Virus record (IMG/VR): IMGVR_UViG_3300018475_000123
Source of the DNA: a virus
Strand: one strand, 5' to 3'
Length of the DNA: 64,000 bases
Below, in pieces: positions 16,238 to 60,443 of the stretch; position 1 is the stretch's first letter; each line of letters begins with the position of its first letter. The notes below the pieces were generated by a model, which saw only the letters and a program-made list of their open reading frames with translations, made no database searches and was not told where the DNA came from. Made by a program: the position numbers and the translations under genes.

Positions 16238-16246
16238 TCCTTGTAT

Positions 16247-18915: not shown

Positions 18916-18927
18916 GAAACCCCCTCC

Positions 18928-19239
18928 TTATCCGAACAGCAGCGTCTGCAAATCTTTGTAAAACTCTTCATCGCTGACGGGGTCTTGAACCGTATCGAAG
19001 TAATCACGGAAGCGACGAGCAATCTCCTCCAGAAGGTCTCTGGTGATCTGCTCTCGCAGTGTGTTGATTTGCAATTCACAGGCGTTCAGGCGGTCTGTAA
19101 TTGTATCAACATGGCATTGCACATCATCCGTTGACGCAACTCTTCCAACCCTTTCATAGAGGTCATAGACAGAACCTTGCAAGGTATACACATCTGACCG
19201 AACACCGGCAATATCTGCAATTACTGCGTCATAGCCCAC
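18928..19239 (-). CDS. hypothetical protein
   Basis: 103-aa ORF. Confidence 0.3.
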   Translation of the reverse strand: MGYDAVIADIAGVRSDVYTLQGSVYDLYERVGRVASTDDVQCHVDTITDRLNACELQINTLREQITRDLLEEIARRFRDYFDTVQDPVSDEEFYKDLQTLLFG

Positions 19240-19993
19240 TTGTCAAACACGCCCTTTCTTTTTCAAATCGCTCCTCTAACTCAAAGATTCCTTGCGGTTT
19301 ATCTTTGTAGAACCCCTTGAAAGGACGGTTGATTTTCGACTGCAAGTCCTTAAGCCTGTCCCAATATTGCGGTAGATAGAGGTAAATATTTCTGAGCTCC
19401 TTTAGGTTTTTGTTTGCACAGCACCAGCAGGAGACACGATCCAGAATGGAATACAGTTCGATTTGGCCAGCCGATGAGTTTTCGTACCAATACCAGCCAC
19501 GAGAGTGGCAGTATTCAAGGCAATCCACTTCGCTCATACCCCAATCGACCAATGGCAACTGTTTTCCATCCGACTTTTCTTTTTCAAAACGCTTGGGTTC
19601 ATCGGCGGCAATACCGACATAATCAATCACCGTATCGCCCAAAGACTTCTTGTATTTCTGAATGGCTCTTGTTTTGGATTTTGTCCCCCAACGACAGGGG
19701 CCGCCACACCAACCGTAGCCATAATGGAAACCGTCTTTATTGCGGTACTTGATTTCACGCTCAAGCATGGAGTACAGGAATGGCTCTTCTGGATAAAGTA
19801 CGATAAACTCAATTCCACGAACTTTCAACATTTCCTTAACCCTGTCACGGATAAGGTAGATGGCTGCAAACTCCATTCCCGTATCATAAAAAACAACGGC
19901 ATCCAGAGGACAACCTTCCTCCAGAAGCCGAAGCAGCATGGCAAGACTATCCTTGCCAAAACTTACACTTGCTATGTATTTCACACCGACCAC
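19229..19993 (-). CDS. PAPS-reductase-family PP-loop ATP pyrophosphatase
   Basis: PP-loop SVSFGKDSLAMLL. C-terminal CWCCANK cysteine motif typical of phage PAPS-reductase-like proteins. Confidence 0.6.
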   Translation of the reverse strand: MVGVKYIASVSFGKDSLAMLLRLLEEGCPLDAVVFYDTGMEFAAIYLIRDRVKEMLKVRGIEFIVLYPEEPFLYSMLEREIKYRNKDGFHYGYGWCGGPCRWGTKSKTRAIQKYKKSLGDTVIDYVGIAADEPKRFEKEKSDGKQLPLVDWGMSEVDCLEYCHSRGWYWYENSSAGQIELYSILDRVSCWCCANKNLKELRNIYLYLPQYWDRLKDLQSKINRPFKGFYKDKPQGIFELEERFEKERACLTSGL

Positions 19994-20126
19994 AGACCAA
20001 TTCCGGTCTCATGGTCAACGCCTTAATCCTCCCGTGCTACTCACACATCTGTGCTTTCACGCTGTAACAAGAAGTTTTACACCAGACTTATCAATCCTCT
20101 GGAAACCCAGTTTACCGGGATTGGTG

Positions 20127-26249: not shown

Positions 26250-27086
26250 TCAAAATCCATTCCAGATTTGCCTGCCGCAATACTCAAAGCATTCGGCATC
26301 GTTGCAGTCTTCCGGTGTAAGATCGGCAAGTCTCTTACGACTGCGCGAAATAAATAAATCCGAATCCATAGGCGGTTTCGGATTTTTGTCTCGTAATAAA
26401 TTGTCCATCTCAAGGAGGGAACTATATGTCTCCTGTTCGTTCTCCTTGAGGTACTGGAAGAAATAGTTTCGATGGAAAGGGCAGAATGCACAGGCGCTTG
26501 CCTTGGTGTCCAAACCCCAAACTTCCAGTATGTATTTATAGCTGTCGGCTCTGGCCATTCCCATATCAACGAGCGGGAACTTGTTGATAAAGAGCCGATG
26601 CGGATTTTCATGGCAGCGGCGGGACTCTTCTACGCTGAAACCCATGTGCATCTCGTGAGCTTTCACATCTTCCGGTTTCAGCCGCTGTCCCTTTTTATAA
26701 CCGAGAAGTTCCCAACGAACATACTTGGTAATCTCATTTACCTTGTAGTCAATAGTACAATTTCTCGGCATTTTTGATTTGTGTCCGTCGTCTTTCAGCG
26801 TCCACCACGGGATGCTGACTGTACGGCGCTCACCGAAGTTCTTCATGAAGTCTTGATACAGCGGTGTGTCCAAGACCTCAAAGAAAATCCCGGCGTTCTC
26901 GCAAGCACGCCGGGTAAATTCCAACTGTTCCATAACCCAAGGCGGCTCCAAGCCAAGGTCGCAGAAGATCACGGCGTCGTAGATCGGAACTAATGGGTAC
27001 GGACTCGTTTTCTGTATTGCATTTTCACAGCTCATAAGAGCCAATGCGGTGGACTGCATACCAGCCCCGAAAGAAAGTATCTTCAT
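26250..27086 (-). CDS. PAPS-reductase (CysH)-family protein
   Basis: ILSFGAGMQSTALALM is collinear with CysH SSSFGIQAAVSLHLV. 278 aa. Confidence 0.55.
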   Translation of the reverse strand: MKILSFGAGMQSTALALMSCENAIQKTSPYPLVPIYDAVIFCDLGLEPPWVMEQLEFTRRACENAGIFFEVLDTPLYQDFMKNFGERRTVSIPWWTLKDDGHKSKMPRNCTIDYKVNEITKYVRWELLGYKKGQRLKPEDVKAHEMHMGFSVEESRRCHENPHRLFINKFPLVDMGMARADSYKYILEVWGLDTKASACAFCPFHRNYFFQYLKENEQETYSSLLEMDNLLRDKNPKPPMDSDLFISRSRKRLADLTPEDCNDAECFEYCGRQIWNGF

Positions 27087-27825: not shown

Positions 27826-28689
27826 TTACAACCAGCGCTCTACAAACTCTCTGTCTTGTGTGAAGATGGGGATTTCTCTGTCGATGACCCAACGACGCCG
27901 GGTAACATTGACAATCTCGTCATTATTTCTGGGATTCGGCTTTGGTGCCGTCTCCGTAACACGATAGCAACAGGAGCCACGCTTGCAGTCTGTGGGGTAG
28001 TCGTTCCAGTTGACACCCTTTTCAGACCACAGCATTTCCTGGATCATGTTGCAAGTCTTTTCGTGGAGCTGTTTGGCGCTGAAATACGCTTGTCCAGCAG
28101 CTTCGATGCTGTTGCGGGTCGCATCTTGCTGACGCCAAATCAGGCAGTTGCAAACTTCATCTTTGGGGATGGAGAAAACCCGTGCATCAAACATGGCCGA
28201 CCAGAACTTGCGCTTGAGCTTGTCGTGGTAAACCATCCTCGCTGCACAAACACGAGCCATATCTTCTTGGGCGACACCCATAAGCTCGGTTACATCATTG
28301 AGATAACCATCGACCTCTTCCGTAAAGAAGCGGTTAAACGCAACCGTCGCCATGGATGCCGCAACGCTGGTCATTTTCTGAACATTGTAGCCGAACCAAG
28401 CATCGGTGGTGATGGTCGCATAGTCGGTGAGAACCAGTGTGATTTCATCGGACTGGGTATAGCCAAACACACAGCCCTGGATGTTCTTACACAGGAACTG
28501 CATGGTACGCTGCATGGTTGTCATCATGACCTTGTCAAAGGGTTTCTTCATGCCCTTTGTGAATGTATGAAACGCTTTGCCGTCAAGGCGAATGATGACA
28601 GGGACTCGACGGGTCAGATAAGTACGAGGTACATACTCGTAATTTTGCTTCATGCGGTCGCCGAGGGAGTCAGCTTTCTTTTTACCCAT
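27826..28689 (-). CDS. tRNA(His) guanylyltransferase Thg1-like protein
   Basis: YEYVPRTYLTRRVPVIIRLDGKAFHTFTKGMKKPFD...GCVFGYTQSDEITLVL is collinear with the Thg1 N-terminal catalytic region (RiDG..FH.Fs...kP.D...........GeSDE). Confidence 0.7.
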   Translation of the reverse strand: MGKKKADSLGDRMKQNYEYVPRTYLTRRVPVIIRLDGKAFHTFTKGMKKPFDKVMMTTMQRTMQFLCKNIQGCVFGYTQSDEITLVLTDYATITTDAWFGYNVQKMTSVAASMATVAFNRFFTEEVDGYLNDVTELMGVAQEDMARVCAARMVYHDKLKRKFWSAMFDARVFSIPKDEVCNCLIWRQQDATRNSIEAAGQAYFSAKQLHEKTCNMIQEMLWSEKGVNWNDYPTDCKRGSCCYRVTETAPKPNPRNNDEIVNVTRRRWVIDREIPIFTQDREFVERWL

Positions 28690-30088
28690 TGCCCATGACC
28701 TCCTGATATTTTTCTTTTACCAAATACGAAACCAGAGCCACACGCTCATTGGGAAGTTCGCCGTTAATTACTTTCTCAAGAACCTCATTCAACACAACGC
28801 CGACGGCCTTGCCTTCAGAGAGGTACAGGAGATTCATCACATCGTGACCGTCAATCGCAAGGTCTTTGAGCTTAAAGCACTGGTTGTTCTTGATGACCTC
28901 TTCCAGAATGACTCCGAGCGCTGCGCACCGTTCGATTCTGGATTCTTGTGTGTCTTTGGCGTGAGCTTGAATGTCGGCCATACGGATGTTCAGCAAGCGG
29001 ACGAACTGTTTTTCACCGATCTTGTTGAGCCATCTGCGAACCGTCTTTGGAGTAGGCTCAATAATAGCATCGTGGTGCAAAACAAGCTCCAAAATGTCCG
29101 ATTTGGATTTATTATCAAACCGGAGTTTGGTAAGCACTTTTTCGGAAATATCATGGCTAAAAACGCCATGACCGTAGAAATGGCCGCCCTTTTCATCTTC
29201 TGTGTAGCAGTGGGGCTTGCCAATATCATGCAGGAGCAGTGACATCTTAACTACGATATCGTCGCCGTCATAGTTGGAAACCGCATGGGCGATATGCTCG
29301 TAGACATTGTACTCGTGGAATCGGTTGTTCTGATCGAAACCGACACACGGCTGCATTTCCGGGATGATGGTGGTAATTACATCGTTGTACTCCAGAAGTA
29401 CATTGAGGACACCCTTGCCGCAGAGCATCTTGCACAGCTCAGACTGGATGCGCTCAGCGGCGATGTTTTTAAGAAGCTCTTTATTCCGGTGGATGGACTG
29501 AGATGTTTTCTCTTCGATAGTAAACCCATAAGTTGAAGCAAACCGCATAGCTCTTAGGATACGAAGTGCATCTTCGTTAAACCTGTCGTCCGGGTTTCCA
29601 ACACAGCGTATCACACCGTTTTTCAAGTCTTCACGACCGTGAAACGGGTCTACCAAACCGGCCTGATTAAAGGCCATTGCATTGATGGTGAAGTCCCTGC
29701 GAGACAAATCCTTATAAATGCTGTCGGTAAACTCCACACTGTCAGGATGTCGGTTGTCCGAGTAATCTCCGTCGATACGAAATGTGGTGACCTCAAACTT
29801 TCCAGACCGCTCCATGTCTACCGTAATCGTGCCGTGTTTCAGGCCGGTGTCGATGGTTCGCACACTGCAGCGAGCGAAGTATTCCTTCATTTCCTCCGGC
29901 GTTGCCGAAGTGCAGATATCCCAATCCTTGGGTTCCAAACCCAACAGGCTGTCACGAACACAACCACCGACCACATATGCTTCATGGTGTGCATACCGAA
30001 GACCCTGCACGATGACCTTAGCACCACGAGGAATTGTGATCTTACACATCGATTGCCCTCCTGTTAATTGACACGATGAACTCCTCAA
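28682..30088 (-). CDS. cca: CCA-adding tRNA nucleotidyltransferase with C-terminal HD domain
   Basis: Pol-beta head GGCVRDSLLG..KDWDI, RRDFTINAMAF and HD LLLHDIGKP. The likely true start is MCKITIPRG at about 30049. Confidence 0.8.
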   Translation of the reverse strand: MRSSSCQLTGGQSMCKITIPRGAKVIVQGLRYAHHEAYVVGGCVRDSLLGLEPKDWDICTSATPEEMKEYFARCSVRTIDTGLKHGTITVDMERSGKFEVTTFRIDGDYSDNRHPDSVEFTDSIYKDLSRRDFTINAMAFNQAGLVDPFHGREDLKNGVIRCVGNPDDRFNEDALRILRAMRFASTYGFTIEEKTSQSIHRNKELLKNIAAERIQSELCKMLCGKGVLNVLLEYNDVITTIIPEMQPCVGFDQNNRFHEYNVYEHIAHAVSNYDGDDIVVKMSLLLHDIGKPHCYTEDEKGGHFYGHGVFSHDISEKVLTKLRFDNKSKSDILELVLHHDAIIEPTPKTVRRWLNKIGEKQFVRLLNIRMADIQAHAKDTQESRIERCAALGVILEEVIKNNQCFKLKDLAIDGHDVMNLLYLSEGKAVGVVLNEVLEKVINGELPNERVALVSYLVKEKYQEVMGNG

Positions 30089-31073
30089 CCTTTTTCATGT
30101 CGGGAGCAACGGGAAGAGAGGTGTTGTTTTTGGCGTAGGCCAAGCGTTTCTCGTATTCAGAAACCATTTCAAAGAACTCCGGTTTGTAAGTTCCGTCTTC
30201 GTTCTGATACTTACCATTCCGAATTTCCAGAAGCATCTCTCTGTCGCTTTCTCTGTATGTCCTGATTTCTTCCTTTTCCAGAATATCAAGGCACATCAGA
30301 TACAGGCGGATCAGGTGCATGGCGTGCTTGTTGAGATGGTTGTCGTCTTTCTTGTGGTTCCGATGATTCAGCTTTTCATAGTTGCCAATCACATTTGACA
30401 AGGTGTTCATCATAATGCTGAACTCTCTTGCCGGATATTTGTCGAGGTGGATGTTGCAGTAAACCTCACGGTCGAGGTCATCTCGTGGACTTTCGTCCGT
30501 AAACAAAGTGATGCCGCCGTTATCGAACACAGTGTATCTGTCACCAAAAGCCTTGAGCGCACGCTCCATGGCCTTTCGGATGTGTTCTTCATTGTCTGCC
30601 TGGGACATCCTATCTCTGGCGAGAGCATTTTCCAGACGGCGAAGCTGTTGTGTTGCGTATCCACCAAATGAGTTGACTGCTTTCTGAGAAAGAAAGAGAT
30701 GCCGATTATCGATCATCTCCTGACCAGCCTCAGACACGAAGAAGTAGTGTTCGGGCTTACAGCCGAGCAGCTCAATCGTGTTAGGATTGCAGTTGAGCAG
30801 GAGACTTACCAACTTGTTGAAGCCGTAAATCGTTGTATCGGTCTGGGTGTTTACTACCTGCTCGAAATTGGAAAGGCCAAGCAGATCGCTTTTGCTGTTC
30901 ATGGCACAACCACGGACATCTACATCAGAAGTCTCAATGTTTGTACCGTATGCGTAGCTGCCACCAAGCGTCAGGAACATGATGCGCCCCGACAAATGTG
31001 GGTTTGTCCTCAGAAAATCATACGATTCTCCGCTAACCATTTCTTTGATCTGTTCGATGGTCAAGCGATCCAC
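30042..31073 (-). CDS. Pol-beta-superfamily nucleotidyltransferase of unknown specificity
   Basis: LTLGGSYAYGTNIETSDVDVRG matches the GS-x9-13-DxD NTase signature. 343 aa with a helical C-terminal half. Confidence 0.5.
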   Translation of the reverse strand: MDRLTIEQIKEMVSGESYDFLRTNPHLSGRIMFLTLGGSYAYGTNIETSDVDVRGCAMNSKSDLLGLSNFEQVVNTQTDTTIYGFNKLVSLLLNCNPNTIELLGCKPEHYFFVSEAGQEMIDNRHLFLSQKAVNSFGGYATQQLRRLENALARDRMSQADNEEHIRKAMERALKAFGDRYTVFDNGGITLFTDESPRDDLDREVYCNIHLDKYPAREFSIMMNTLSNVIGNYEKLNHRNHKKDDNHLNKHAMHLIRLYLMCLDILEKEEIRTYRESDREMLLEIRNGKYQNEDGTYKPEFFEMVSEYEKRLAYAKNNTSLPVAPDMKKVEEFIVSINRRAIDV

Positions 31074-31080
31074 CTCCTGT

Positions 31081-31588
31081 AATTCTTAAAATGTTGTATA
31101 AGTGACTCCACTCCCGGCCTCACCACACACCTTTACGCTGTGCCATATTACCACCACAGCATGACCTCTTGTGCCATGCCAGTAGTCCTTTCAGCCTTTC
31201 TATCGGGGAGCAGGGGGGTTAGTGTTTCCCGTCTTAGCTTACCAAGGTATTTCGGTGTACCGATATATACACCCGTTGCACCTCTCCCAGCCTCCGCAGA
31301 GAACTGGGCCGTTACCATCTGTGTGCGGCCATGGCCTGTGCGCAGCTTCCGCACTCCATCAGTGGTACAACGCCACCTAACCGCTCTTTTCTTTAACGCC
31401 CGGTCACATCATTTGAGTTTTGGTTTCTTGTTTACCGCCGTGTTTCCCTCACGGCATCATGCACCCGGTCAGTTTTTATTTTATGGACGAGTCAGAACCG
31501 TCACTCGTCCCGATGTGCCACCTTGGAATCCGACCGCCACTCACAGCCGTGATATGTTATCTCAATCGGGCCAAACATATAGACACGA
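31081..31588. other. about 510-bp GC-rich non-coding gap with multiple stem-loops; candidate structured RNA
   Basis: Only low-complexity, implausible ORFs are present. It contains nested inverted repeats, for example gacgagtgacggttctgactcgtc. Confidence 0.3.
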
Positions 31589-32092
31589 TTAGTGCTTGCT
31601 GATAACCCGCTTGAACTTCAGCTCGCTGTTTTCGATATACTCGTCAATCAAACGGCTCTGTTCCTTGGTTTCCGCATACGCAGTAATCGTGATTGTTTTC
31701 TTACTCCAATCCAGTGTGTAGGTATCAGCCGCCACATTGGTTACATGATGCTTTGCCAGAAAATCTCGGAGTTTCTTCATTGCCTGCAAGTCATCTGACA
31801 TAATCACATTCACATAGGTTTTCTCTTTAGAGAACTTGTTGCTTACTGCAACTGCCAGACAGCATCCAACGCCACTGGCAATCGACACAACGATCAGTGC
31901 AAAACTGTTATCGGTTGTGACAATGTTTTTCGTGATGCAAAGGTACAGGAAATTGGATAATCCCAACGCCAGTCCGGCCAGAATACAGCGATTGCGCTGA
32001 ACCAGAATCGTCTTGGCAGTACCCAACATATTGTCGATTACCTTTGCAACGAACAGGATTGTAAAGTAAATCCACCCAGTCAAAAATATCAC
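31589..32092 (-). CDS. membrane protein, DUF2179/UPF0316-like
   Basis: Two or three N-terminal TM helices plus a soluble C-terminal domain; the family call is from memory. Confidence 0.35.
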   Translation of the reverse strand: MIFLTGWIYFTILFVAKVIDNMLGTAKTILVQRNRCILAGLALGLSNFLYLCITKNIVTTDNSFALIVVSIASGVGCCLAVAVSNKFSKEKTYVNVIMSDDLQAMKKLRDFLAKHHVTNVAADTYTLDWSKKTITITAYAETKEQSRLIDEYIENSELKFKRVISKH

Positions 32093-32424
32093 TCCTAACT
32101 CTTATCTCTCACTCTTTTGACCAGGATTAGCATTGTAATGCTGGCATCAAGTGCGCTTATATCTCTTGTGTCACAATGGCTGGGAAGAAACCCAGATTTC
32201 AAACAGAAAATTTCCACGGTGGCATATCGCCTTGTTTACCCCATGGGCAACGATCTTAGCCGTCACTTGTCTGGTCACGCAGTAAGGTCGCTTCGACAGG
32301 CACCAGACTATTTTCCCCTTACCCGGATACCGATATCACCTAAGTCGGAAGGGTGTGTAATAGGTTCTTTTGTTAGAGGTGCGCCACAAGCCGTACACAC
32401 TCAGCTCCCTATGAAACATTCGTT

Positions 32425-33516
32425 TTATTCGTCGTTTGCCAGCAGGAAATCGGGGTTGATGACCTTGAAACTGATGTCGGGGTCATAACTCCGCATAACC
32501 ACGCCTTCTCGCTTCTGTCCGGCGAGCAGAGTGGAAGTACCCTTGGCATACTCCACCAGGTCAGCAATGGTCTCGGGCAGAACTTTACCCTCCTCCAGAA
32601 CGGGAACCGCCTTGATGCTAAATGGATGCAGCAGTCGTGCAATTTCTCTGGTATCGCACTTGCGGTCAGGGAAAATCAGGTTAAATGCGTAGAAATCGTA
32701 GCTATTAACCCGATATTTGTTCTTTTGGATGCCGGGGCCGATGATTTCTCCCTGCAAAACGATGCGGTCATGGTCACCAATGAGCTGCATCAGCACAGAC
32801 TTAATGTCGTACTTGGCAGCGATTGACCAGTAAGAACTGTTGTCGGGCTTACCCAAACGAATGTTTCGGGAGCATACGCCGAACTCATATTTCTTACGAC
32901 CGACTTTTTCCAGGAAGTATGTAGCGGACTGACCGTCGATCTTCTCCGTAACCATGAAACGAGTACCGTTCTTTTTCTCGTTCTCGAACATGGTAGTCTT
33001 GTTCTGGATGCGTTCCTCGTCAGTCTTGACGATCCATGCAGGGAAGCCTTTCTTCTTGGGCTTCGGGCCGAAACACTTACGGAACCAACGGAACCTCATC
33101 ATGAACTGGAACAGCTTGCCGTACTGTTTCACACGGCTGTCATCTGCACAGGCCAGAAGCTGACGCTCCTGCTCAGCCTGCGGGTCATATTTCTTGATGC
33201 CCAGGATTTCCGTTACATCCATATCCAGCGCATAGGTGCCGGGAGGAAGGATGCTCATGGGGAGAACCAGACCCTGGGAGACCTGTTTGCGGAGCTTGAT
33301 GGTACGAACACGGAACTTTCTATCCCGCAGGAACTCAAACTCTGGTCGGTCAGGCACGATGGAATCCACTTCGATGTAGACAATGTGCTGGCCAACTGCA
33401 AATTCGCCTTTCTGGACAACGCACTCCCAGCCATCAACCTGTGCAACCTCGATCCGGTCTGCACCAGGGATGGGGCGAATATCTGAGATAGTGCGGATGG
33501 TTGCTAACCTTCGCAT
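32425..33516 (-). CDS. ATP-dependent RNA ligase (DraRnl/Rnl5-like: N-terminal OB-like domain plus nucleotidyltransferase)
   Basis: KxDG motif I in TEKIDGQSATYF, with downstream motifs (GEIIGPGIQ, EGVVMR). N-terminal RIEVAQVDGWECVVQKGEFAVGQHIVYIEVDS resembles the DraRnl N-domain. Confidence 0.6.
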   Translation of the reverse strand: MRRLATIRTISDIRPIPGADRIEVAQVDGWECVVQKGEFAVGQHIVYIEVDSIVPDRPEFEFLRDRKFRVRTIKLRKQVSQGLVLPMSILPPGTYALDMDVTEILGIKKYDPQAEQERQLLACADDSRVKQYGKLFQFMMRFRWFRKCFGPKPKKKGFPAWIVKTDEERIQNKTTMFENEKKNGTRFMVTEKIDGQSATYFLEKVGRKKYEFGVCSRNIRLGKPDNSSYWSIAAKYDIKSVLMQLIGDHDRIVLQGEIIGPGIQKNKYRVNSYDFYAFNLIFPDRKCDTREIARLLHPFSIKAVPVLEEGKVLPETIADLVEYAKGTSTLLAGQKREGVVMRSYDPDISFKVINPDFLLANDE

Positions 33517-34201: not shown

Positions 34202-35095
34202 TTAGTTCACGCCGTCAATACTGACGATAGCGCCAGCACCGGAGACGGTGGGCATCTTACCATCCCACTGCTCGTACTTGATCTTCTCAATCAGTTCTGC
34301 GGTCAGGGAGGCAGCGATCTTTCTGTTTGCATCAGCCTCTGCTTCGGCGGCAATGCGGATGACCTCGGCCTCGGCATTGGCTTCGATGATTGCCTTTTCA
34401 GCCGCAATCTGTGCGACCTCTTTTTCCTTATTGGCATTCACTTTGGCAGTCTGCGCTTCAATATTGGCCAACTCCAGCTCCTGCTGTGCAGTAACTTTCT
34501 TCTGGATGGCTGCCGCTGTCTCTGCATCCACGGAGATGTCCGTGAAGTTCACGGTATCAATGATGATACCGTACTGGTCGAATTTTTCACGCAGGTATGT
34601 ATCCAGTTCAGCATTGATCTGAGTACGCTTGTCACCAAAGATGTCTGTGACAGGATAGTTTGCGGAAACTTCCTGTGTCCATGCGATAATCTTGGGCTTA
34701 ATAAATGTGTCTTTGATGCTCTCACCAGATTTACCCTTGAACATTACGAAAGTATCAGCAACTCTTGCCTCGTCAAAACGGTAGGAGAACTCCAAATTGA
34801 CACGAACCGTTTTACCATCGGAAGTGGGGATGCTGAAACTCTCATCCTTGGGAGAGTCACCCTTTTCCTCGGCAGTCAGGTAGGACTGCTCAATACCAAT
34901 GGAGTATGTAGTGACCTTTTTGGTGGGAGACACCAGATGCCAGCCCTGAGTCAGAACTTCACCATCCACGCCGCCGTTCATGTTGTACACAACGCCGACA
35001 TAACCGGCAGGCACCTTTTCCAGACAGATGACCGCACCGGCCAGACCCAGCACCAGACACAGTGCCAGAATTACTGCACCAATTTTACCCTTCAT
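34202..35095 (-). CDS. SPFH/band-7 (HflK/C-like) membrane protein
   Basis: N-terminal TM segment, SPFH core and a long Ala/Glu-rich coiled coil. Start trimmed to MKGKIGAVILAL. Confidence 0.65.
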   Translation of the reverse strand: MKGKIGAVILALCLVLGLAGAVICLEKVPAGYVGVVYNMNGGVDGEVLTQGWHLVSPTKKVTTYSIGIEQSYLTAEEKGDSPKDESFSIPTSDGKTVRVNLEFSYRFDEARVADTFVMFKGKSGESIKDTFIKPKIIAWTQEVSANYPVTDIFGDKRTQINAELDTYLREKFDQYGIIIDTVNFTDISVDAETAAAIQKKVTAQQELELANIEAQTAKVNANKEKEVAQIAAEKAIIEANAEAEVIRIAAEAEADANRKIAASLTAELIEKIKYEQWDGKMPTVSGAGAIVSIDGVN

Positions 35096-35273
35096 TCGTT
35101 GATTCCTTTCTTTCCTCGCTTGATTTTGCGGGTTCATCTCCCGCAATTTCCTTTTTTGCATCGTTGAACAGGCGCAGACCGATACCGCCGATGCCCTTAA
35201 AGGCAAAGCTCAGGCAGAACCAGATAAGTACCAGTGCAGCGATGACCAGAAACCAGAAAACTACATTCATCAC
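35085..35273 (-). CDS. small membrane protein paired with the SPFH gene (NfeD-like partner?)
   Basis: 62 aa with a TM helix, immediately upstream of the SPFH gene. Confidence 0.3.
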   Translation of the reverse strand: MMNVVFWFLVIAALVLIWFCLSFAFKGIGGIGLRLFNDAKKEIAGDEPAKSSEERKESTNEG

Positions 35274-35284
35274 ACCACCCCGAT

Positions 35285-35737
35285 TTAGATTTTATATAAG
35301 GTAAGATGATGCTCACGAAAAACATCCGTCAGCATATCCAGAACCTTTCCCCAATCGCCACCACCGAGGCCGCAACCAATTCTGTAAGGCATGGCAATCG
35401 TGTTGCCCGCCTTGACATTGGCCGCAATCTCTCTGCAACCACAGCGCAAAGCCTCGAAGTTGGTGTACTTCTTGCCATCCCGGCCAAACTGGAACTGACC
35501 AAAAATGTTGATGATGGCAGTGTTCTCATTTACACGAACGCCCTGAATCTGCCCAAGCAGAGCTTCTCGGTTGTTCGCATGGTCATCACAGACCTTTTTG
35601 TATTTGTCAAACACCTCTGGCCATTTGGCACGAATCTGCTTGGCAACACCACTGCCCATGACTCCCTGGCAGTTGACCTGGTGGCATATGTATTGTGCAG
35701 AAGACTCCATCAAGTCCCCGTTAATAATCCGAATCAT
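35285..35737 (-). CDS. macro-domain protein (ADP-ribose binding/processing)
   Basis: IINGDLMESSAQYICHQVNCQGVMGSGVAKQI matches the macro-domain N-terminal signature (GDIt...ai.n.aN..g.mG.GvA). Confidence 0.7.
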   Translation of the reverse strand: MIRIINGDLMESSAQYICHQVNCQGVMGSGVAKQIRAKWPEVFDKYKKVCDDHANNREALLGQIQGVRVNENTAIINIFGQFQFGRDGKKYTNFEALRCGCREIAANVKAGNTIAMPYRIGCGLGGGDWGKVLDMLTDVFREHHLTLYKI

Positions 35738-35957
35738 CAGTGATTCCCTCCTCCGATAAGAGCCACTCTTTTTGGTGATCTACGGCATCTTCATAACCGT
35801 AATAAGTGTGGCCGTCAGTCGTGCGGTAGTATGTTGTCTCTCCACACTCGCACCATTCGCCGTCATACCCCTCGTCGTATTCGCGCTCAGCATACTCACT
35901 GACGAGAAGTTCAGCGAGGCGTTCAATGTCCTGCAACAGCCGTTCAAGGTTTGTCAT
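35721..35957 (-). CDS. hypothetical acidic protein
   Basis: 78 aa. Confidence 0.25.
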   Translation of the reverse strand: MTNLERLLQDIERLAELLVSEYAEREYDEGYDGEWCECGETTYYRTTDGHTYYGYEDAVDHQKEWLLSEEGITDDSDY

Positions 35958-36370
35958 GACGCATCCTCCGTTAAAACTCTCGGGTGATAAACTCTGTTCT
36001 CCATGCGTTCCTCAGCTTTTCTTGTTCTGCCGAGGGCTTCACGCAGAAGGTTCATCATGTTCTTGCCCTTATCGCTGTCCAGGAACTGAACGAGTGGCTC
36101 CAAAATTTCGGCGGTGTCTTTGTGCTCTCGGCGGAGTTGTCTGCACTGCATTAGCTTCGTGGCGACCTTGGCACGCTCTGCATAGTCGAGTTCGTCCAGT
36201 TCCAGCTTGTGCAGGTAATCCTGTGTGAGCCGATCCATTCGGTTGACTTCCTCACGACTCCAGGTGTAATCCTTGACCGCATCTTCCATCATCCTGCAGA
36301 CGCCGCTGATGTACGGAGAGAACTGGGGCGTTTCCTTCTTTTTCTTCTTAGCGATAAGGAACACCTCCAA
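35954..36370 (-). CDS. hypothetical protein
   Basis: 138 aa. Confidence 0.3.
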   Translation of the reverse strand: MEVFLIAKKKKKETPQFSPYISGVCRMMEDAVKDYTWSREEVNRMDRLTQDYLHKLELDELDYAERAKVATKLMQCRQLRREHKDTAEILEPLVQFLDSDKGKNMMNLLREALGRTRKAEERMENRVYHPRVLTEDAS

Positions 36371-36605
36371 GTAAGAGCAACTCGATTATTTCATCCGTGT
36401 CTGCCACATCGAAATCAGGAGCCTCGTCAAGCTCTATCCACTCAGCAGCACTTGGCTTGATGAGCAGGGCTTTGTTTGCCAATTCCACGAAGTAGATCAC
36501 ATTTCCAACGATTTCTCTAATCGTAAAAATCCCTGTCTCGCCGAACCCCTCGAAGCGGATCATCTCTCCGGGCGCCATTTCAAGTATTCTTCTGAAAGAC
36601 ATGAC
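36348..36605 (-). CDS. hypothetical protein (start trimmed to avoid overlap with the ligase)
   Basis: Internal MSFRRILEMAPGE start. Confidence 0.25.
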   Translation of the reverse strand, partial: VMSFRRILEMAPGEMIRFEGFGETGIFTIREIVGNVIYFVELANKALLIKPSAAEWIELDEAPDFDVADTDEIIELLLLGGVPYR

Positions 36606-36612
36606 GCCTCCT

Positions 36613-37908
36613 TTATCCGTAGCTAATATCATCTTTGTCGGTTCGCAGGGAAACAAAAACAGGAAACTGCAAACTGCGGTTCCCTGTGGACTTATCAAAC
36701 GATATTTCCTTGTATTTCACTTCGGCAAGAACGCCGGTGACCTCTTCCTGGTGCGACCAGAACCACGCTCTCTGTTCATCCGTAAACCCGGAGCCAACTC
36801 CTACTTCAACGCCGTCGTAATCGACTACGATAGCGCCGAGAGTATTGGACAACTTACCCGTTCCGGCCTCACATCGAATGATGGGCAAGTCCATGGTGTA
36901 AAACCGCTTCACTTTTAGGATACCGCCGTGCCGTTTGCACTGGTAAGGAACATCAAGATTGACCATCAATCCCTCTTTGTCTTCGTTTACCATGCGTTCC
37001 AAAAGTGGAGCGATTACAGATTGATCTGTTCCGCAATACAATGCAGGAAGCACACGAACATGGTCGTTTCCTTGCAGTTCAGAAGCAAGGCGATCCAACT
37101 GCTCTCGCCGTTCACTGTATGTTGCGGAGCTTACGCCACGATCAAACTCATAAACGGGTAAAACATCAAAAACCGTGAAGCAAACCTGTGTTTTATCATC
37201 GTTTTCAGAGTTGACAATTCCCGTGGTTATGCGGAATGCTTCATTATCGGAGTGGCCACCTTTGTGCTTTAAGGTCAGCTCTCCATCAAAAACCAACTCT
37301 GAGTAAGGTTCAAGCACATTTACAATGTGATCGAGGCCATTCAGCACAGTTCCACTGCGACCACGCAATTCTCCACGGTAAAGTGTAGCCCGAACTCCAT
37401 TCAGCTTCTCAGAAACCGAGAACCATACCCCATCTTTCAGCGGATGCTTTTCAATAGGATATGCCTGCTGAACCTCCCACTCAGGGATAAGACCAGGAAT
37501 GGCTTTGTTTACGCTCTTAGCAGTGACACCAAGCCGCAGGGTCTTGGCGAGAAGTTTCTTGAACATCTCACGATACCCCTCGTCTTGTGTCTCCAGAAAA
37601 GCAAGGACTTGATACACAGTCGCATCGTCCAGAGCTTTTCTTTTGCTGAGCGTTTCACACACCTCAAAGATTGAAGTAAATGTGAGAGTGATTGCTGGAT
37701 TATACACGCATCTTTGGAACAGTGTTGCTTCCGACACCTTATAGGAAAGCAGCGGATGACAGGCGTAGTAAAGCAACTGCCTAAAAATACTGTCATCCTT
37801 GTTCTGAGCCATGATTGACAGCTTTTCCTTTGATCCGCGTGCTTCTTGCAGTCTCTTCATTTCAGCTACTGCATTATGCAAATCGCCCATTGTTGCTCCC
37901 GCCTCCAT
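36613..37908 (-). CDS. ATP-dependent DNA ligase (T7-like) with variant motif I KLNG
   Basis: Motif I SEKLNGVRAT (Asn in place of the usual Asp). Motif III LVFDGELTL, motif IV KEGLMVNLD, motif V GILKVKRF. C-terminal OB-fold region. Confidence 0.6.
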   Translation of the reverse strand: MEAGATMGDLHNAVAEMKRLQEARGSKEKLSIMAQNKDDSIFRQLLYYACHPLLSYKVSEATLFQRCVYNPAITLTFTSIFEVCETLSKRKALDDATVYQVLAFLETQDEGYREMFKKLLAKTLRLGVTAKSVNKAIPGLIPEWEVQQAYPIEKHPLKDGVWFSVSEKLNGVRATLYRGELRGRSGTVLNGLDHIVNVLEPYSELVFDGELTLKHKGGHSDNEAFRITTGIVNSENDDKTQVCFTVFDVLPVYEFDRGVSSATYSERREQLDRLASELQGNDHVRVLPALYCGTDQSVIAPLLERMVNEDKEGLMVNLDVPYQCKRHGGILKVKRFYTMDLPIIRCEAGTGKLSNTLGAIVVDYDGVEVGVGSGFTDEQRAWFWSHQEEVTGVLAEVKYKEISFDKSTGNRSLQFPVFVSLRTDKDDISYG

Positions 37909-37992: not shown

Positions 37993-38733
37993 TTAAGGCT
38001 GGCTGCCGTATGCGGGCATAGGTTTCAGTTTGTGCAGATTCTTTCTGTGAAGACCCTCGATCAAACGCTCGTGTCTCTCAATGGCACAACATCCATCCAT
38101 GATGTATCTGTCGATTTCCTGATAGCTGACGCCGAGATTGTCCTCGTCTGTCTTGCCGCACAGGCCATCGGAAGGAACCTTATCAACCAGGTCTCTGGGA
38201 ATGGGAAGCTCATGGCCGATTTCCAAAACCTCATGAACCATCAGATTGGAAAGTGGGCTGAAGTCACCAACACTGTCACCAAACTTTGTGGAATACCCTA
38301 CAAAGTCTTCGGAGCGGTTACAAGTATTGGCAACACGACCGCCCTCCGGCAGGGACTGAGCCACTGCATACAGAGTGGTCATGCGGATGCGGGGAGGAAT
38401 GTTGACAACCGTCTGCTCGCTTACCTGCATAATACCGCTCAGCTCTTCCATCAGAGCAAAGACGGTGCTTTCAATGTTGACCACTTTGTAGTTGATACCG
38501 AGAGCTTCAACGAGGCGATGGCTATCATGAATATCAGACTGTTCACCGTTCGGCATCAGAACACCCACAACACGATCCTTGCCAAGCGCTTCGACACACA
38601 GAGCAGCCACAACACTTGAGTCTTTGCCGCCGGAGATACCGACAACAGCAGAGCAGTTCGGCCCGTTTTCGGCAAAGTAGTCTCTGATCCACTGAACGAT
38701 TTCATCTTTCGTTCTCTTAGGGTTTGCAAGCAT
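37993..38733 (-). CDS. nadE: NH3-dependent NAD+ synthetase NadE
   Basis: PP-loop VVGISGGKDSSVVAAL; NadE-like length and layout. Confidence 0.8.
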   Translation of the reverse strand: MLANPKRTKDEIVQWIRDYFAENGPNCSAVVGISGGKDSSVVAALCVEALGKDRVVGVLMPNGEQSDIHDSHRLVEALGINYKVVNIESTVFALMEELSGIMQVSEQTVVNIPPRIRMTTLYAVAQSLPEGGRVANTCNRSEDFVGYSTKFGDSVGDFSPLSNLMVHEVLEIGHELPIPRDLVDKVPSDGLCGKTDEDNLGVSYQEIDRYIMDGCCAIERHERLIEGLHRKNLHKLKPMPAYGSQP

Positions 38734-38744
38734 AGCGACCCTCC

Positions 38745-40232
38745 TTAGAAATTGCCGTTGTGCAGATTATTTCTCACATCTGCCAGAGTGTACTTGGTAA
38801 CAAACTCGCCATCTTCAAAGACGGGGACAAGTTCATTGTTATCCTGTGCCTGTGCCCATGTCAGACCGTCTTCATAAGCATAGCCGTCAGCGGTCTTATA
38901 CACACGGCAGCAACCACGCTGAGATTTCTTGAAATGACCGGAATCGGTCTTGGGGTTCTTGAAAATCATAATGGGAGCGCCGTTTGCATCCTCAGCATAG
39001 GTGGCCTTGACGGCGATGCCGAATGTGTCACGGGTATAGGGGTTGTACTCTGTTCGGAAGTCTGCAATGGTTTCCAGACACTGCATAGAGAACGAACCAA
39101 CGCCCAAAGAAACATTGTTAATTGCAAACCCATTCCGCTCCAGGCGCTTATAGATTTCTTCGCATCTCTGTGGCGTAATGCTGTCGCCGTAGATGGCTTT
39201 CACATGAGGATTCAGCACCTTAAATCCCTTGCTGTTGACAGTGCCACCGAAGATGTCCCACAGCTTAAACACGGTCTGTGTTACAACCTCAACAGGGTTG
39301 CCACTGTCGCCACGGATGGAGATAAATCCATCGTGCGCAAGGATTTCGTCCTTGAGCTGAGGAAGAATGTTATCCACCAGATTCCAGTAGTCGTAACTGT
39401 CGCTCACCATTGAGAAACTTTGGTGAGGATAGACCTCAGTCAGCAGGCGACGAACATGGGTGATTTCGTCTCCGTCGATGGCAAAGTTGGAACACATAAC
39501 GCTGTGCTCAGTGGACAGGGCGCCAAAAGCAACCGGCTCTGTGGAACTGTCACACAGGTAGTTGTCCTCCAACCAAAGGATGGCGGGAACAGTTGCCGTA
39601 TTCAGAAAACTGAGGCAGAAAGCGGCAGAACTCTTGGTTGCACTCTCAACACTCTCCTGGCCACGCATAGAAAAATCGCCAAGGAGTCTTGCACGGGGCA
39701 CGCTGTCATCACAGGTGCGATCAGCAAACTCATTGACGATCTGACGATAACGATAACCGACTTCTGCGGAAACCTGCGTGTGCCACATGGTACAGGACAG
39801 CATGGTTTCAATGGAATTAACCAACCACACAAAGTCGGGATGTGTGTTGGAGATTTCGATCTGTGGAACCTTAATATCAGAGCGGGTTCCTTCGGGGAGT
39901 GCTCTGATTTTCAGAGGCAGATAACCGAGATTGTAGAGTTTCTCGATGCGCTCCTCGCCAACACCGTTCGTGCCGATAGTGGCGTTGAGCACACGCTTGT
40001 ACTCTTCCAGAACCTTGGGATAGGGCTTGTCAAAGAAGTTCTCATTGAACGCATCGATGAGATACTCCTGAATGAACGCCTGCAGACCAAAGAGAGTGAT
40101 CTTCCCAGTGTCCTGGAGTCTGGACATTCTGGGCGTATAGTAGGAGACCATTTTGGTCAGTCCCTTGGGGTACTGATCTGCGTGGGCGGTCTTGTAAAAA
40201 TCCAGACACAGCAGAGGATTGTAATGTATCAT
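38745..40232 (-). CDS. nicotinamide phosphoribosyltransferase family (NadV/NAMPT or its NARP1 paralog Namat)
   Basis: 495 aa. N-terminal LLCLDFYKTAHADQYP matches the NAMPT family start (LL.tDsYK..H..qYP). The length fits NAMPT rather than PncB. Confidence 0.7.
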   Translation of the reverse strand: MIHYNPLLCLDFYKTAHADQYPKGLTKMVSYYTPRMSRLQDTGKITLFGLQAFIQEYLIDAFNENFFDKPYPKVLEEYKRVLNATIGTNGVGEERIEKLYNLGYLPLKIRALPEGTRSDIKVPQIEISNTHPDFVWLVNSIETMLSCTMWHTQVSAEVGYRYRQIVNEFADRTCDDSVPRARLLGDFSMRGQESVESATKSSAAFCLSFLNTATVPAILWLEDNYLCDSSTEPVAFGALSTEHSVMCSNFAIDGDEITHVRRLLTEVYPHQSFSMVSDSYDYWNLVDNILPQLKDEILAHDGFISIRGDSGNPVEVVTQTVFKLWDIFGGTVNSKGFKVLNPHVKAIYGDSITPQRCEEIYKRLERNGFAINNVSLGVGSFSMQCLETIADFRTEYNPYTRDTFGIAVKATYAEDANGAPIMIFKNPKTDSGHFKKSQRGCCRVYKTADGYAYEDGLTWAQAQDNNELVPVFEDGEFVTKYTLADVRNNLHNGNF

Positions 40233-40459
40233 TTCTTCTTACCCTCTTTCAAATTTTTAGGAATGCCATATTTTGCAAAGTACAGGGCAAAGGCAAATGG
40301 TGCGGCAACAGGCCATAAAACTCCCATAACCACGCAATATCCAGCCTTGTCATGCCAACCTCTGCCATAGTCGCTGTCAGCGAAAATATACAGATAGTAC
40401 AATGCAAATGTAACAAATGCACCAACGCAAATGTATAAAAGCATCAGCAGAAAAATCAC
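40229..40459 (-). CDS. small membrane protein
   Basis: 76 aa, two TM helices. Confidence 0.3.
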   Translation of the reverse strand: MIFLLMLLYICVGAFVTFALYYLYIFADSDYGRGWHDKAGYCVVMGVLWPVAAPFAFALYFAKYGIPKNLKEGKKK

Positions 40460-41661
40460 TCTTCGTCACCTGCCTTAAAGTTGTAGATAGGCTTGATGAC
40501 TGCTTCGATTGTGACTGTAGGCTCGATGTTGTCAACAATATCGGACATATTCTTATATGCCATCGGACACTCGTCAAGCGTGCTCCTACCAACAGAAGTG
40601 GTGTAGATACCGTCCATCTGTTTCTTGAACTCGGACACAGTAAAGGTCTGCTTTGCCGCACTGCGGCTCATCAGACGACCAGCACCATGAGGAGCTGAAC
40701 AGTTCCAGTCTTCGTTGCCCTTACCAACGCAAATCAGACTGCCATCTCTCATGTTAATGGGGATCAACAGCTTTTCACCTGCCTGCGCAGAAACTGCACC
40801 CTTGCGGAGGATCATGTTATCCACATCGATGTAGTTGTGAATGGTGGTGAACTGCTCAACAACATGGAAGCCCATCTCTTTTACGATGGTGTCCATCATA
40901 GCCTGACGATTGAGGTTTGCAAACCGTTGAGCAATACGCATATCATGCAGATACTGCTCAAAAAGCTCGCCCTCCACATATGCAAGAGGCTTCGGAATAG
41001 GCGAATGCTTGGACTTCAACTGCTTGAGAACGCTCTGAATCTCTTTCTGACGGCCAGCAGCTTTCAACTCCTCGACCTTTGCATCAATTTCCTCTTTGCT
41101 GTACGAGGTTAATGCTTTGTATGCTGCTTCCTGATAGAAGTTAGCAATTTCAAGGCCGAGATGACGGCTGCCGGAGTGAACTACGATGTATATGTTTCCA
41201 GCATCGTCTTGGTTTGCCTCAATGAAATGGTTACCACCGCCGAGCGTGCCAATGCTGCTGTATGCACGGTCGATGTTTACCTTTTTGGCGCAGCAAAGCT
41301 CTGACAGGTCGATATCCTTGGCAAATCGGTGTTCCTTTTTACGAATCTCAAACCCGGATGGAATACCAGCACGAATTACCTTGTCCAACTTCTGCGGCTC
41401 GATATGCGCTTCCTTGATGCGGATCGTTTCCATTCCGCATCCGATGTCCACGCCAACGAGGTTGGGGCAAATCTTATCCTTGATTGTCATAGTGGTGCCA
41501 ATGGTGCATCCTGCTCCGGCGTGAATGTCCGGCATCATACGAACTCGGCTGCCCTCAATATAGGGCTGGTTCAAAAGGTTAATTACCTGCGAAATCGACT
41601 CGTTGTCAACCACATCGGTAAACACCTTGGCAGTTGCGTATTTGCCCTGCAACTCAATCAT
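40456..41661 (-). CDS. rtcB: RtcB RNA 3'-phosphate/5'-OH ligase
   Basis: MPDIHAGAGCTIGTT, GGGNHFIE, HSGSRHLG and C-terminal HGAGR motifs. Confidence 0.85.
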   Translation of the reverse strand: MIELQGKYATAKVFTDVVDNESISQVINLLNQPYIEGSRVRMMPDIHAGAGCTIGTTMTIKDKICPNLVGVDIGCGMETIRIKEAHIEPQKLDKVIRAGIPSGFEIRKKEHRFAKDIDLSELCCAKKVNIDRAYSSIGTLGGGNHFIEANQDDAGNIYIVVHSGSRHLGLEIANFYQEAAYKALTSYSKEEIDAKVEELKAAGRQKEIQSVLKQLKSKHSPIPKPLAYVEGELFEQYLHDMRIAQRFANLNRQAMMDTIVKEMGFHVVEQFTTIHNYIDVDNMILRKGAVSAQAGEKLLIPINMRDGSLICVGKGNEDWNCSAPHGAGRLMSRSAAKQTFTVSEFKKQMDGIYTTSVGRSTLDECPMAYKNMSDIVDNIEPTVTIEAVIKPIYNFKAGDEE

Positions 41662-41681
41662 AGGCTTGCCCTCCTTGAGAC

Positions 41682-42485
41682 TTACTGAATGACGGACACC
41701 TTCTCGTGCTCGCCACGGAAAATGCTTTCGGATGTGAACACATGGGTAATCAACCCATCTGTCAGAACTGAACCATCACGAATGGTATTTTCGCAATGGG
41801 TAACATAGAGGAAAATGTTTTCCGCACCAGCCTCTTTCAAAGCCTTTGCGGTGTGGGTAAATGTGCCACCACGGGAACAGATATCATCAACGATAAGGAC
41901 GGTTCTGCCCTCGACTTTATCCGCACCAACCAGTTCGAGCTTCTGGATTTTGCCAGTACGCCAATCTCTGTGCTTGATGCCGAACACATAGTCGCCCTGG
42001 ATTTGGGAAGAGTACCGCTTCGATGCACCCTCATCGGGATAACAAAGCAGAATGTCCTGCTTACCAAAGGTTTCCCGGATATTCTTCATTACAAACTCTT
42101 CCACGCATCTGGTTACACCAATCGACTGGAAGCGGTTAATCAGAGCTTCAGACACACTGGAGTGAGGGTCATACGCCGTAACCGAGTCAAACCCCAGTGC
42201 GTTGATGAAGTCGGCAAACCACTTGAGCGTAAACACTTCGTCGCCACTTTTCACCCTATCCATTCTGGCATTGGGGATATAGGGCATAATGAGGTTGATT
42301 TCCACGGAACGGTCTCTGTTTGAACGAATGTGGTTGGTAAGGTGCCAGACGAGAATACATTCGTGGTCACCATCATACAACCACTTAATATCATAGGTCA
42401 TTGCCTTACCAGTGTCAAACCGGAATGAGGTTGTACCGTCGGGAAAAGAGGTAAAACTGACTTCCTTTCCGTTCACGAAAATCAT
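41682..42485 (-). CDS. ribose-phosphate pyrophosphokinase homolog (Prs-like or Adps-like)
   Basis: PRPP-binding loop RTVLIVDDICSRGGTFTHTAKALKEAGA. N-terminal Prs-like domain. Confidence 0.7.
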   Translation of the reverse strand: MIFVNGKEVSFTSFPDGTTSFRFDTGKAMTYDIKWLYDGDHECILVWHLTNHIRSNRDRSVEINLIMPYIPNARMDRVKSGDEVFTLKWFADFINALGFDSVTAYDPHSSVSEALINRFQSIGVTRCVEEFVMKNIRETFGKQDILLCYPDEGASKRYSSQIQGDYVFGIKHRDWRTGKIQKLELVGADKVEGRTVLIVDDICSRGGTFTHTAKALKEAGAENIFLYVTHCENTIRDGSVLTDGLITHVFTSESIFRGEHEKVSVIQ

Positions 42486-42486
42486 A

Positions 42487-43041: not shown

Positions 43042-43190
43042 TCTTCGCACCTTCCTTTATTGATGTCGTCTTTATTTCGTTTGCGATTATACGCTTTCTT
43101 ATTCGGAACAATCTGAGTAACGGGGCGAGCGCACGACCAGAAATTCCTGGACTTTTTCGCTTTCTGCTTTTTCTCATTCTTTTCTGTCAT
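43038..43190 (-). CDS. 50-aa Lys/Arg-rich small protein, translationally coupled to the PncA-like gene (ATGA overlap)
   Basis: Strong RBS ggaggtg 6 nt upstream of the ATG at 43190. Below the 60-aa cut-off of the ORF track. Confidence 0.35.
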   Translation of the reverse strand: MTEKNEKKQKAKKSRNFWSCARPVTQIVPNKKAYNRKRNKDDINKGRCEE

Positions 43191-44756: not shown

Positions 44757-44768
44757 AATAAGTGGTGC

Positions 44769-60442: not shown

Positions 60443-60443
60443 A

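Follow-up and report, generated by a model that had tools for sequence, protein, structure and literature searches.

Why a bacteriophage should carry a set of predicted enzymes for rebuilding broken RNA ends, when its own transfer RNA (tRNA) genes already encode complete 3' CCA tails, is the question raised by positions 27826 to 33516 of a 64,000-nucleotide (nt) stretch of DNA from IMG/VR virus record IMGVR_UViG_3300018475_000123. The whole stretch, referred to here as the window, is phage DNA with genes for a Pol III alpha-type polymerase, a primase, a DnaB-type helicase and a PD-(D/E)XK nuclease, and the locus is transcribed from the minus strand, as is nearly the whole window. A preliminary description had placed four consecutive minus-strand genes here, encoding a Thg1-like protein, a CCA-adding enzyme, a Pol-beta nucleotidyltransferase (NTase) and an ATP-dependent RNA ligase, and had read them, together with a more distant RtcB ligase and the phage tRNA genes, as a counter-measure against tRNA-cleaving host defences. 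The four open reading frames (ORFs) were recovered on the minus strand at the positions given in Table 1, but they are not strictly consecutive, as an ORF of 167 amino acids (aa) and two non-coding gaps split the NTase from the ligase. The order of transcription is an RNA ligase of the Rnl5 type, a gap of 332 nt (32093-32424), the membrane-protein ORF, a gap of 515 nt (31074-31588), the NTase, the CCA-adding enzyme and the Thg1-like protein; a scan of the cluster for promoters and terminators gave no signal above chance. The analysis of these genes and of their relatives suggests that the phage probably encodes an RNA-end repair set, centred on a compact predicted operon, which would keep tRNAs usable under host nuclease attack during infection.

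The NTase had been described as an orphan with no assigned substrate and as a possible novel terminal transferase. This view had to be abandoned, because the protein is a member of the RlaP family, scoring 57.8 bits against Pfam PF10127 (cut-off 23), over profile positions 18-141 of 249 only, and matching PHROG 388 over its full length (E 8e-52). A precomputed PF10127 match was present in all 120 of the closest homologues among the matches listed, and 5,435 proteins in the whole representative library matched the NTase at E <= 0.001. The residues of the Pol-beta signature (G38, S39, D50, D52 and D79; motifs GGS, DVDVRG and TDT) were invariant or nearly so in 77 homologues, and the AlphaFold2 (AF2) model, with a predicted local distance difference test (pLDDT) score of 94.5, was composed of an NTase domain and a helical domain. 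Neither an RlaP structure nor any other close solved structure was found in PDB searches with the single sequence and with a 77-sequence profile or by structure comparison, and no specific sequence match or close structural match to antibiotic NTases (ANT, LinB) was found. On sequence grounds the NTase is assigned to a long, divergent branch of the RlaP family.

A prediction reportedly made in 2016 is that members of the RlaP family put back the nucleotides that broken RNA ends have lost. Two Pseudomonas enzymes, PfRlaP and PaRlaP, add one or two nucleoside monophosphates to an RNA 3'-OH; a mimic of cleaved tRNA is the preferred substrate, and aminoacylation is regained by a tRNA short of one nucleotide (December 2025 preprint, 10.64898/2025.12.29.696909). 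T4 NrdC.11 has been placed in PF10127 by the same work (10.64898/2025.12.29.696909). The phage NTase resembles the Pseudomonas enzymes, which are encoded in rtcB-rlaP-rtcA operons, in being a PF10127 Pol-beta NTase with the GS...DxD...D motifs and, according to the AF2 model, a build of NTase and helical domains, and it is likewise predicted to extend broken RNAs at a 3'-OH. However, it is ~80 aa longer, its genetic partner is a CCA-adding enzyme and not RtcB or RtcA, and it is closer to the PHROG 388 phage NTases than to Pseudomonas RlaP.

The stop codon of the RlaP-like gene and the start codon of the CCA gene overlap by 8 nt as ATGTGTAA, with AGGAGG in front, and the stop of the CCA gene overlaps the start of the Thg1-like gene by 8 nt as ATGGGTAA; both overlaps fit ATGnnTAA. 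For the CCA gene, the ATG at 30049 behind this AGGAGG is the most likely start, rather than the TTG at 30088 that opens the mechanically called ORF (28682-30088). The RlaP-like, CCA and Thg1-like genes are predicted to form a translationally coupled operon.

To compare this arrangement with that in other phages, related loci were collected with a 14-sequence alignment of the NTase, and neighbouring genes were counted within ±6-10 kb in 78 viral loci with distinct RlaP sequences, 55-86% identical to that of the window. The relatives are IMG/VR viral contigs of ~60-145 kb (individual loci are designated L with a number where necessary), and database names or genome bins link the homologues to gut Clostridia, among them Flavonifractor and Oscillospiraceae. 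The CCA gene directly followed the RlaP gene in 57 of the 78 loci, lay within 1.6 kb of it in 11 and was absent in 10, and the RlaP-CCA order persisted at identities as low as 55% for RlaP and ~40% for CCA. In 40 of the 78 loci the fetched flanks included a Thg1-like gene, located either just after the CCA gene or 2.5-3 kb upstream of RlaP. In one relative, L240, with an RlaP 94% identical to that of the window, an HNH_3 endonuclease gene (11075-11563) is inserted between RlaP and CCA, and this type of insertion probably explains the gaps of 0.4-0.5 kb between the two genes in some other relatives. Exceptions to the pairing still have an RNA-end enzyme next to RlaP, namely RtcB directly downstream in L133 and Thg1 directly upstream in L159. 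The clustering of the core genes does not appear to be due to chance, because the 8-nt overlaps are accompanied by a linkage that recurs in dozens of diverged phage contigs.

The CCA-adding enzyme had been identified correctly. It scored 134.8 bits against the PolyA_pol head (PF01743), with additional matches to PolyA_pol_RNAbd, HD and tRNA_NucTran2_2, and it reached the NCBIfam equivalog NF009814 (CCA tRNA nucleotidyltransferase) by a narrow margin (297.1 bits, cut-off 290), while its scores against the PcnB and A-adding models were far under their cut-offs. The closest CCA enzymes in the PDB were of the Firmicutes type, 6IBP (E 8e-60) and 1MIV (E 2e-54). Motifs A-E were located as GGCVRD, DWD, RRD, EDALR and ERI at residues 41, 55, 130, 172 and 212 of the 468-aa ORF, and a weak match to the HD domain (PF01966, 28.6 bits, cut-off 22) covered residues 260-344, in which the H...HD...H...D residues are visible. 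In E. coli, where the tRNA genes encode CCA, the CCA enzyme serves repair, and its HD domain clears cyclic or 3'-phosphate ends. The phage enzyme shares the class II head and neck, motifs A-E and the HD domain with this multifunctional type, but it is nearest to the Firmicutes type, its HD match is weak and its C-terminus is of the tRNA_NucTran2_2 type.

The Thg1-like assignment was equally borne out. The protein scored 98.3 bits against Pfam Thg1 (PF04446, cut-off 29.2) over profile positions 3-130 of 130, with a weak extra match to Thg1C, and matched PHROG 4717 at E 1.5e-88. Its nearest solved relative is the Bacillus thuringiensis Thg1-like protein (TLP) 4KGK (E 1.7e-56), and human, yeast and Candida Thg1 matched it only at E 1e-5 to 1e-6; by these matches the phage protein is classed as a bacterial TLP rather than as the eukaryotic Thg1 subtype. 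The metal-binding carboxylate motifs, RLDG at 34 and SDE at 80, both align with 4KGK. TLPs carry out template-dependent nucleotide addition to 5'-truncated tRNAs (PMC4820378, PMC3701042), and the carboxylate motifs shared with the B. thuringiensis (PDB 4KGK; PMC3701042) and archaeal (PMC4820378) proteins suggest that template-dependent 3'-5' addition would be expected of the phage protein also. The latter differs from the B. thuringiensis TLP in an insertion of ~40 aa (residues 126-164) and in its location in an operon with CCA and RlaP genes. The preliminary description had considered the combination of enzymes unusual. Thg1-like genes are indeed scarce, being found in 155 of 50,697 phage records, but the RlaP-CCA(-Thg1) module is common in this clade of gut phages. 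The RlaP-CCA-Thg1 arrangement was not seen in the cultured Thg1 phages Fnu1 and FADO, nor in C. difficile phage AR1086-1, which is the closest cultured carrier of an RlaP-like NTase.

The ATP-dependent RNA ligase was confirmed by matches to the PHA02142 OB domain (PF21189, 109.8 bits) and to RNA_ligase (PF09414, 78 bits); it passed the cut-off of TIGR02306 RNA_lig_DRB0094 (173.7 against 151 bits) and matched the Naegleria gruberi RNA ligase 5COT at E 1.1e-47. The motifs KIDG at 192, GEIIG at 256, EGVV at 337 and FKVI at 350 align with those of NgrRnl. The likeness to the Rnl5 enzymes of N. gruberi and Deinococcus radiodurans extends to the N-terminal OB domain joined to an adenylyltransferase domain, the TIGR02306 match and the KxDG lysine, whereas the ligase described here is phage-encoded. 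The RtcB gene, which was expected about 7 kb away, is full length and lies 6.9 kb from the RNA ligase; its product scored 225.8 bits against PF01139 (profile positions 1-425 of 426), matched PHROG 1075 at E 5.8e-145 and contains the motifs DIGCG, GNHF, HSGSR, HN and HGAGR. All five enzymes (Thg1-like, CCA, RlaP-like, Rnl5 and RtcB) retain their catalytic motifs.

If the activities of the characterised homologues are retained and tRNA is the substrate, the three products of the core operon, transcribed in the order RlaP-like NTase, CCA enzyme with HD domain and Thg1-like protein, would each be responsible for restoring one section of the tRNA acceptor end. Templated by the 3' strand, the Thg1-like protein would refill a truncated 5' strand of the acceptor stem; the HD domain would remove 2',3'-cyclic or 3'-phosphate ends and the CCA enzyme would finally restore C74-C75-A76. 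Internal breaks would be resealed by the two ligases, Rnl5 joining 3'-OH to 5'-P ends and RtcB joining 3'-P or cyclic-P to 5'-OH ends, and the 13 phage tRNAs may act as spare substrates. The order of these steps is likewise a prediction. Their proposed purpose, the repair of tRNA as counter-defence, would fit the coupled operon, the conserved linkage, the counter-defence-like neighbours and the presence of CCA in 13 of 13 tRNA genes.

A more specific role for the long RlaP-like enzyme can be put forward tentatively, by reason of the gene linkage and of chemistry by analogy. A CCA enzyme requires a tRNA ending at the discriminator base, and a nuclease that removes N73 along with CCA would therefore defeat it. 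The RlaP-like enzyme may be a 'first-step' partner that restores N73 (perhaps N72) on tRNAs cut beyond CCA, after which the coupled CCA enzyme would finish the tail; we regard this as possible rather than likely. A RuvC-type cut, such as that made by Cas12a3, should leave a 3'-OH. Cas12a3 removes the four-nucleotide tRNA tail 5'-NCCA-3' (PMC12851939). As its 3'-OH product is the end that characterised RlaP enzymes need, a relay of RlaP and then CCA enzyme would mend exactly this lesion, and, with the Thg1-like protein acting on the 5' strand, the relay would constitute a complete acceptor-end kit countering tail-trimming nucleases such as Cas12a3. Untemplated addition would yield the right discriminator base in only some cases.

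The same partner logic would also explain a tandem of long and canonical RlaP genes that is widespread in Clostridia genomes. A comparison was made of 80 loci of the long NTase from bacterial genomes or metagenome-assembled genomes (L160-L239); of the 72 with a downstream ORF on the same strand, 43 had a canonical RlaP gene directly next to it and 14 had a gene for a CCA enzyme there. In phage and bacterial settings alike, the long RlaP-like gene is thus followed nearly always by a second Pol-beta nucleotidyltransferase. Lachnoanaerobaculum orale (L201) has a long RlaP-like gene at 6010-7032 and a gene at 7019-7816 for a canonical RlaP of 265 aa, which scores 288 bits to PF10127.

The literature proposes that RlaP is a helper of RNA ligases (PMC7824862; 10.64898/2025.12.29.696909). 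If this model alone applied, the RlaP-like enzyme would refill an anticodon-loop nucleotide before sealing, as after RloC-type damage, and its adjacency to the CCA gene would have no mechanistic meaning. The location of the Rnl5 gene, 1.35 kb upstream of the RlaP-like gene and in the same orientation, agrees with such a role, as does its similar placement in the closest relative, L001, and the 3'-OH that RlaP leaves is the kind of end used by a 5'-P ligase like Rnl5. However, 68 of the 78 relatives have the CCA gene next to RlaP or no more than 1.6 kb from it, compared with 7 of 78 for Rnl5 and 3 of 78 for RtcB within the flanks, and it is the RlaP and CCA reading frames that overlap. From what is generally known of NgrRnl and DraRnl, moreover, ligases of the Rnl5 type prefer nicks in duplex RNA over loop breaks. 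A role confined to ligase assistance is considered doubtful, and the fixed RlaP-CCA pair hints, as an apparently new clue set against the published model of RlaP beside a ligase, that RlaP tracks the CCA enzyme here.

The tRNA genes were used to distinguish repair from maturation. The preliminary description had counted at least 13, and 13 were found: 12 by ARAGORN and one, at 56296-56402 (minus strand), by Rfam only, a Tyr(GUA)-like tRNA of 107 nt with a variable arm of ~40 nt. All 13 carry an encoded CCA and an acceptor stem that is paired throughout. The phage tRNAs can thus be made with no CCA addition or 5' editing, and for this reason repair is favoured over maturation. Housekeeping maturation, in which the enzymes would process the phage's own tRNAs, the Thg1-like protein adding G-1 to tRNA-His and the CCA enzyme maintaining tails, is unlikely; it would also leave RlaP, Rnl5 and RtcB unexplained, and the window has no tRNA-His gene. 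G-1 addition opposite C73 is nevertheless a reaction known for TLPs, and the one tRNA-His found in a relative (L059, 7893-7970) encodes its CCA and C73 but has T at -1, so that G-1 would have to be added after transcription. Similar tRNA-His genes with T at -1 were found in L255 and L274, but another phage contig, L252, has a Thg1-like gene together with a tRNA-His encoding G at -1, so that the enzyme and the missing G-1 do not simply correlate. Further phage tRNA-His genes recovered by that search also encode G at -1. It would also suit maturation that the phage tRNAs are many and that some are oddly structured. Among the individual genes, tRNA-Gln(UUG) (44042-44132, minus strand) is 91 nt long and has U1-A72/G73 but a long variable arm, and a Leu-like tRNA called as Ala(CGC) (56979-57059, minus strand) is 81 nt long with a short anticodon arm. 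That the genes belong to no common pathway, being independent auxiliary genes gathered in a variable early region, would account for the differing positions of Rnl5, RtcB and Thg1 between relatives and for the interspersed unrelated membrane ORF, non-coding RNA and (in one relative) HNH endonuclease gene, but is highly improbable, because the 8-nt overlaps at two junctions and an RlaP-to-CCA order held across proteins diverged to 40-55% identity make a coincidence unlikely.

Several observations weigh against the tRNA-repair reading that we favour. The ligases, to judge from the low counts in the related loci, are only loosely tied to the core. In an hhalign comparison with a canonical 265-aa RlaP only residues 35-143 of the NTase aligned (probability 91%), and as only these N-terminal ~110 residues are in common, the activity may differ from that of the Pseudomonas enzymes. 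In the bacterial tandems the long and canonical RlaP genes often overlap and no recognisable ligase or repair gene lies near, and the primary role of the long NTase may therefore not be phage counter-defence. No polynucleotide 5'-kinase was found in Pfam scans of the larger ORFs of the window, so that, for the 5'-OH ends produced by metal-independent RNases, Rnl5 would depend on a helper encoded elsewhere. The tRNA-His of L059, finally, since it lacks an encoded G-1, leaves room for a maturation role of the Thg1-like enzyme. With regard to end healing, one of two calcineurin-like metallophosphoesterases in the window (44769-45443) could be an RNA 3'-end healing enzyme, by analogy with the phosphatase domain of Clostridium thermocellum Pnkp.

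A system of this kind has already been published for jumbo phages, and the differences are matters of detail. The jumbo-phage toolkits include RtcB, ATP-dependent ligases, RlaP, the CCA enzyme, sporadic Thg1 and many tRNAs, and were read as a counter to tRNA-cleaving defences (Iyer et al. 2021, PMC7824862). The same parts list is found here with the same proposed purpose, including the NAD-related counter-defence genes. The ligase described here is of the Rnl5 type, whereas those of the jumbo phages are typically Rnl1 or Rnl2; RlaP, CCA and Thg1 lie here in one overlapping operon, and RlaP tracks CCA rather than the ligases. The size of the related contigs also indicates that the phage is not jumbo, unlike those of the earlier study (PMC7824862). 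A second comparison is with T4, in which Pnkp and Rnl1 repair PrrC-cleaved tRNA-Lys. In both cases phage enzymes would reverse host tRNA cleavage and keep translation going, but neither Pnkp nor Rnl1 was found among the ORFs scanned here, and the emphasis would be on rebuilding the acceptor end (CCA enzyme, TLP and RlaP), with RtcB and Rnl5 for sealing.

The longer of the two gaps contains a separate lead. The stretch 31091-31571 has no conserved ORF, and homologues of 310-400 nt were found in 24 viral loci (for example L059 8051-8404, L062 128-465 and L043 1707-2016), consisting of a conserved core with two or three optional hairpin insertions; none was found in L001. The consensus fold has 87 pairs, in which 98.7% of pair cells are standard, and 13 pairs had changed on both sides, compared with 4.1±1.5 in shuffles and 2-3 in slid controls, numbers that are somewhat inflated because this alignment had also yielded the structure. 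Rfam at permissive thresholds gave no match for either non-coding gap or for the shortest RNA homologue. The single-sequence folding energies of the two gaps were not unusual (z -1.8 and +1.07), and the case for an RNA therefore rests on the comparative data. In several relatives the element lies inside tRNA arrays, on the same strand and 2-7 nt from the flanking tRNAs, which suggests that it is co-transcribed with the tRNAs and freed by tRNA-processing enzymes; elsewhere its neighbours vary. These data point to a candidate unclassified structured RNA of ~310-480 nt across loci. Of the shorter gap, ~112 nt are conserved with L001. The membrane-protein ORF between the gaps gave weak matches, to a YscD BON-like domain (25 bits) and, far under the cut-off, to NCBIfam PRK04164; among the relatives compared it is kept in L001 only, and it is probably not part of the repair pathway. 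At the far end of the window, a RAGATH-4 motif (63381-63518, minus strand, 104.8 bits) scored just over the cut-off, and a RAGATH-16 motif (63693-63763, minus strand) scored 83.1 bits.

The wider surroundings look like a counter-defence region, with Adps- and Namat-like genes, NadE, a nicotinamidase-like gene, a Macro domain and many tRNAs. A block of nicotinamide adenine dinucleotide (NAD) genes spans 37993-43050 on the minus strand, interrupted by RtcB between the Namat-like and the Adps-like gene, and looks like the NARP1 counter-defence pathway for NAD+ reconstitution. In Bacillus phage FADO a Namat/Adps-like pair also occurs near the Thg1 gene. The interval from the RNA ligase to the NAD block (34202-37908, minus strand) encodes a member of the SPFH/prohibitin family, a protein with a Macro domain and an ATP-dependent DNA ligase. 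Fusobacterium phage Fnu1 also has prohibitin and FolD genes around its Thg1 gene. The region 15041-20000 (minus strand) encodes a cysteine-desulfurase-like class V aminotransferase, FolD and a 3'-phosphoadenosine 5'-phosphosulfate (PAPS)-reductase-like protein (19229-19993), and a second PAPS-reductase-like protein (PHROG 424) is encoded at 26250-27086 (minus strand). The aminotransferase, FolD and the two PAPS-reductase-like proteins may belong to a nucleic-acid modification pathway. A reverse transcriptase gene (45843-46979, minus strand; RVT_1, 74.7 bits) lies beside the tRNA genes; it is not obviously part of a diversity-generating retroelement, as a search of the region 43-52 kb gave no pair of template and variable repeats.

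Table 1. Positions in the window of the predicted repair genes and of associated features
Feature	Position	Strand	Remarks
Thg1-like protein, bacterial TLP type, predicted 3'-5' template-dependent nucleotidyltransferase	27826-28689	-	287 aa; Pfam, PHROG and PDB matches
Class II CCA-adding enzyme with internal HD domain	28682-30049	-	455 aa from ATG at 30049; Pfam, NCBIfam and PDB matches
Long RlaP-like Pol-beta nucleotidyltransferase	30042-31073	-	343 aa; homologues 339-340 aa; PF10127, PHROG 388
Candidate structured non-coding RNA	31091-31571	-	Comparative data
Membrane-protein ORF between NTase and ligase	31589-32092	-	167 aa; weak profile matches
Rnl5-type (DraRnl/NgrRnl) ATP-dependent RNA ligase, N-terminal OB domain	32425-33516	-	363 aa
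RtcB 3'-phosphate/5'-OH RNA ligase	40456-41661	-	401 aa
Thirteen dispersed tRNA genes, each with an encoded 3' CCA	44042-61507	-	ARAGORN and Rfam
Calcineurin-like metallophosphoesterase	44769-45443	-	PHROG 1649; among tRNA genes
Calcineurin-like metallophosphoesterase	18331-18915	-	PHROG 547
NAD synthase (NadE)	37993-38733	-	NAD block
NAMPT/Namat-like gene	38745-40232	-	NAD block
Phosphoribosyl pyrophosphate (PRPP)-synthetase/Adps-like gene	41682-42485	-	NAD block
Isochorismatase/nicotinamidase-like gene	42487-43050	-	NAD block

The cleavage of tRNA is emerging as a major theme of bacterial immunity, with examples in PrrC, PARIS, retron effectors, Cas12a3 and CRISPR-associated Schlafen. To our knowledge, the answers described so far in phages are spare tRNAs and the ligase pathway of T4. 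The locus described here nominates a candidate counter-measure to nucleases that trim the tRNA tail, and the tie between RlaP and CCA genes across a large and diverged set of gut phages amounts to a clean natural experiment on the target that RlaP-family enzymes repair in vivo.

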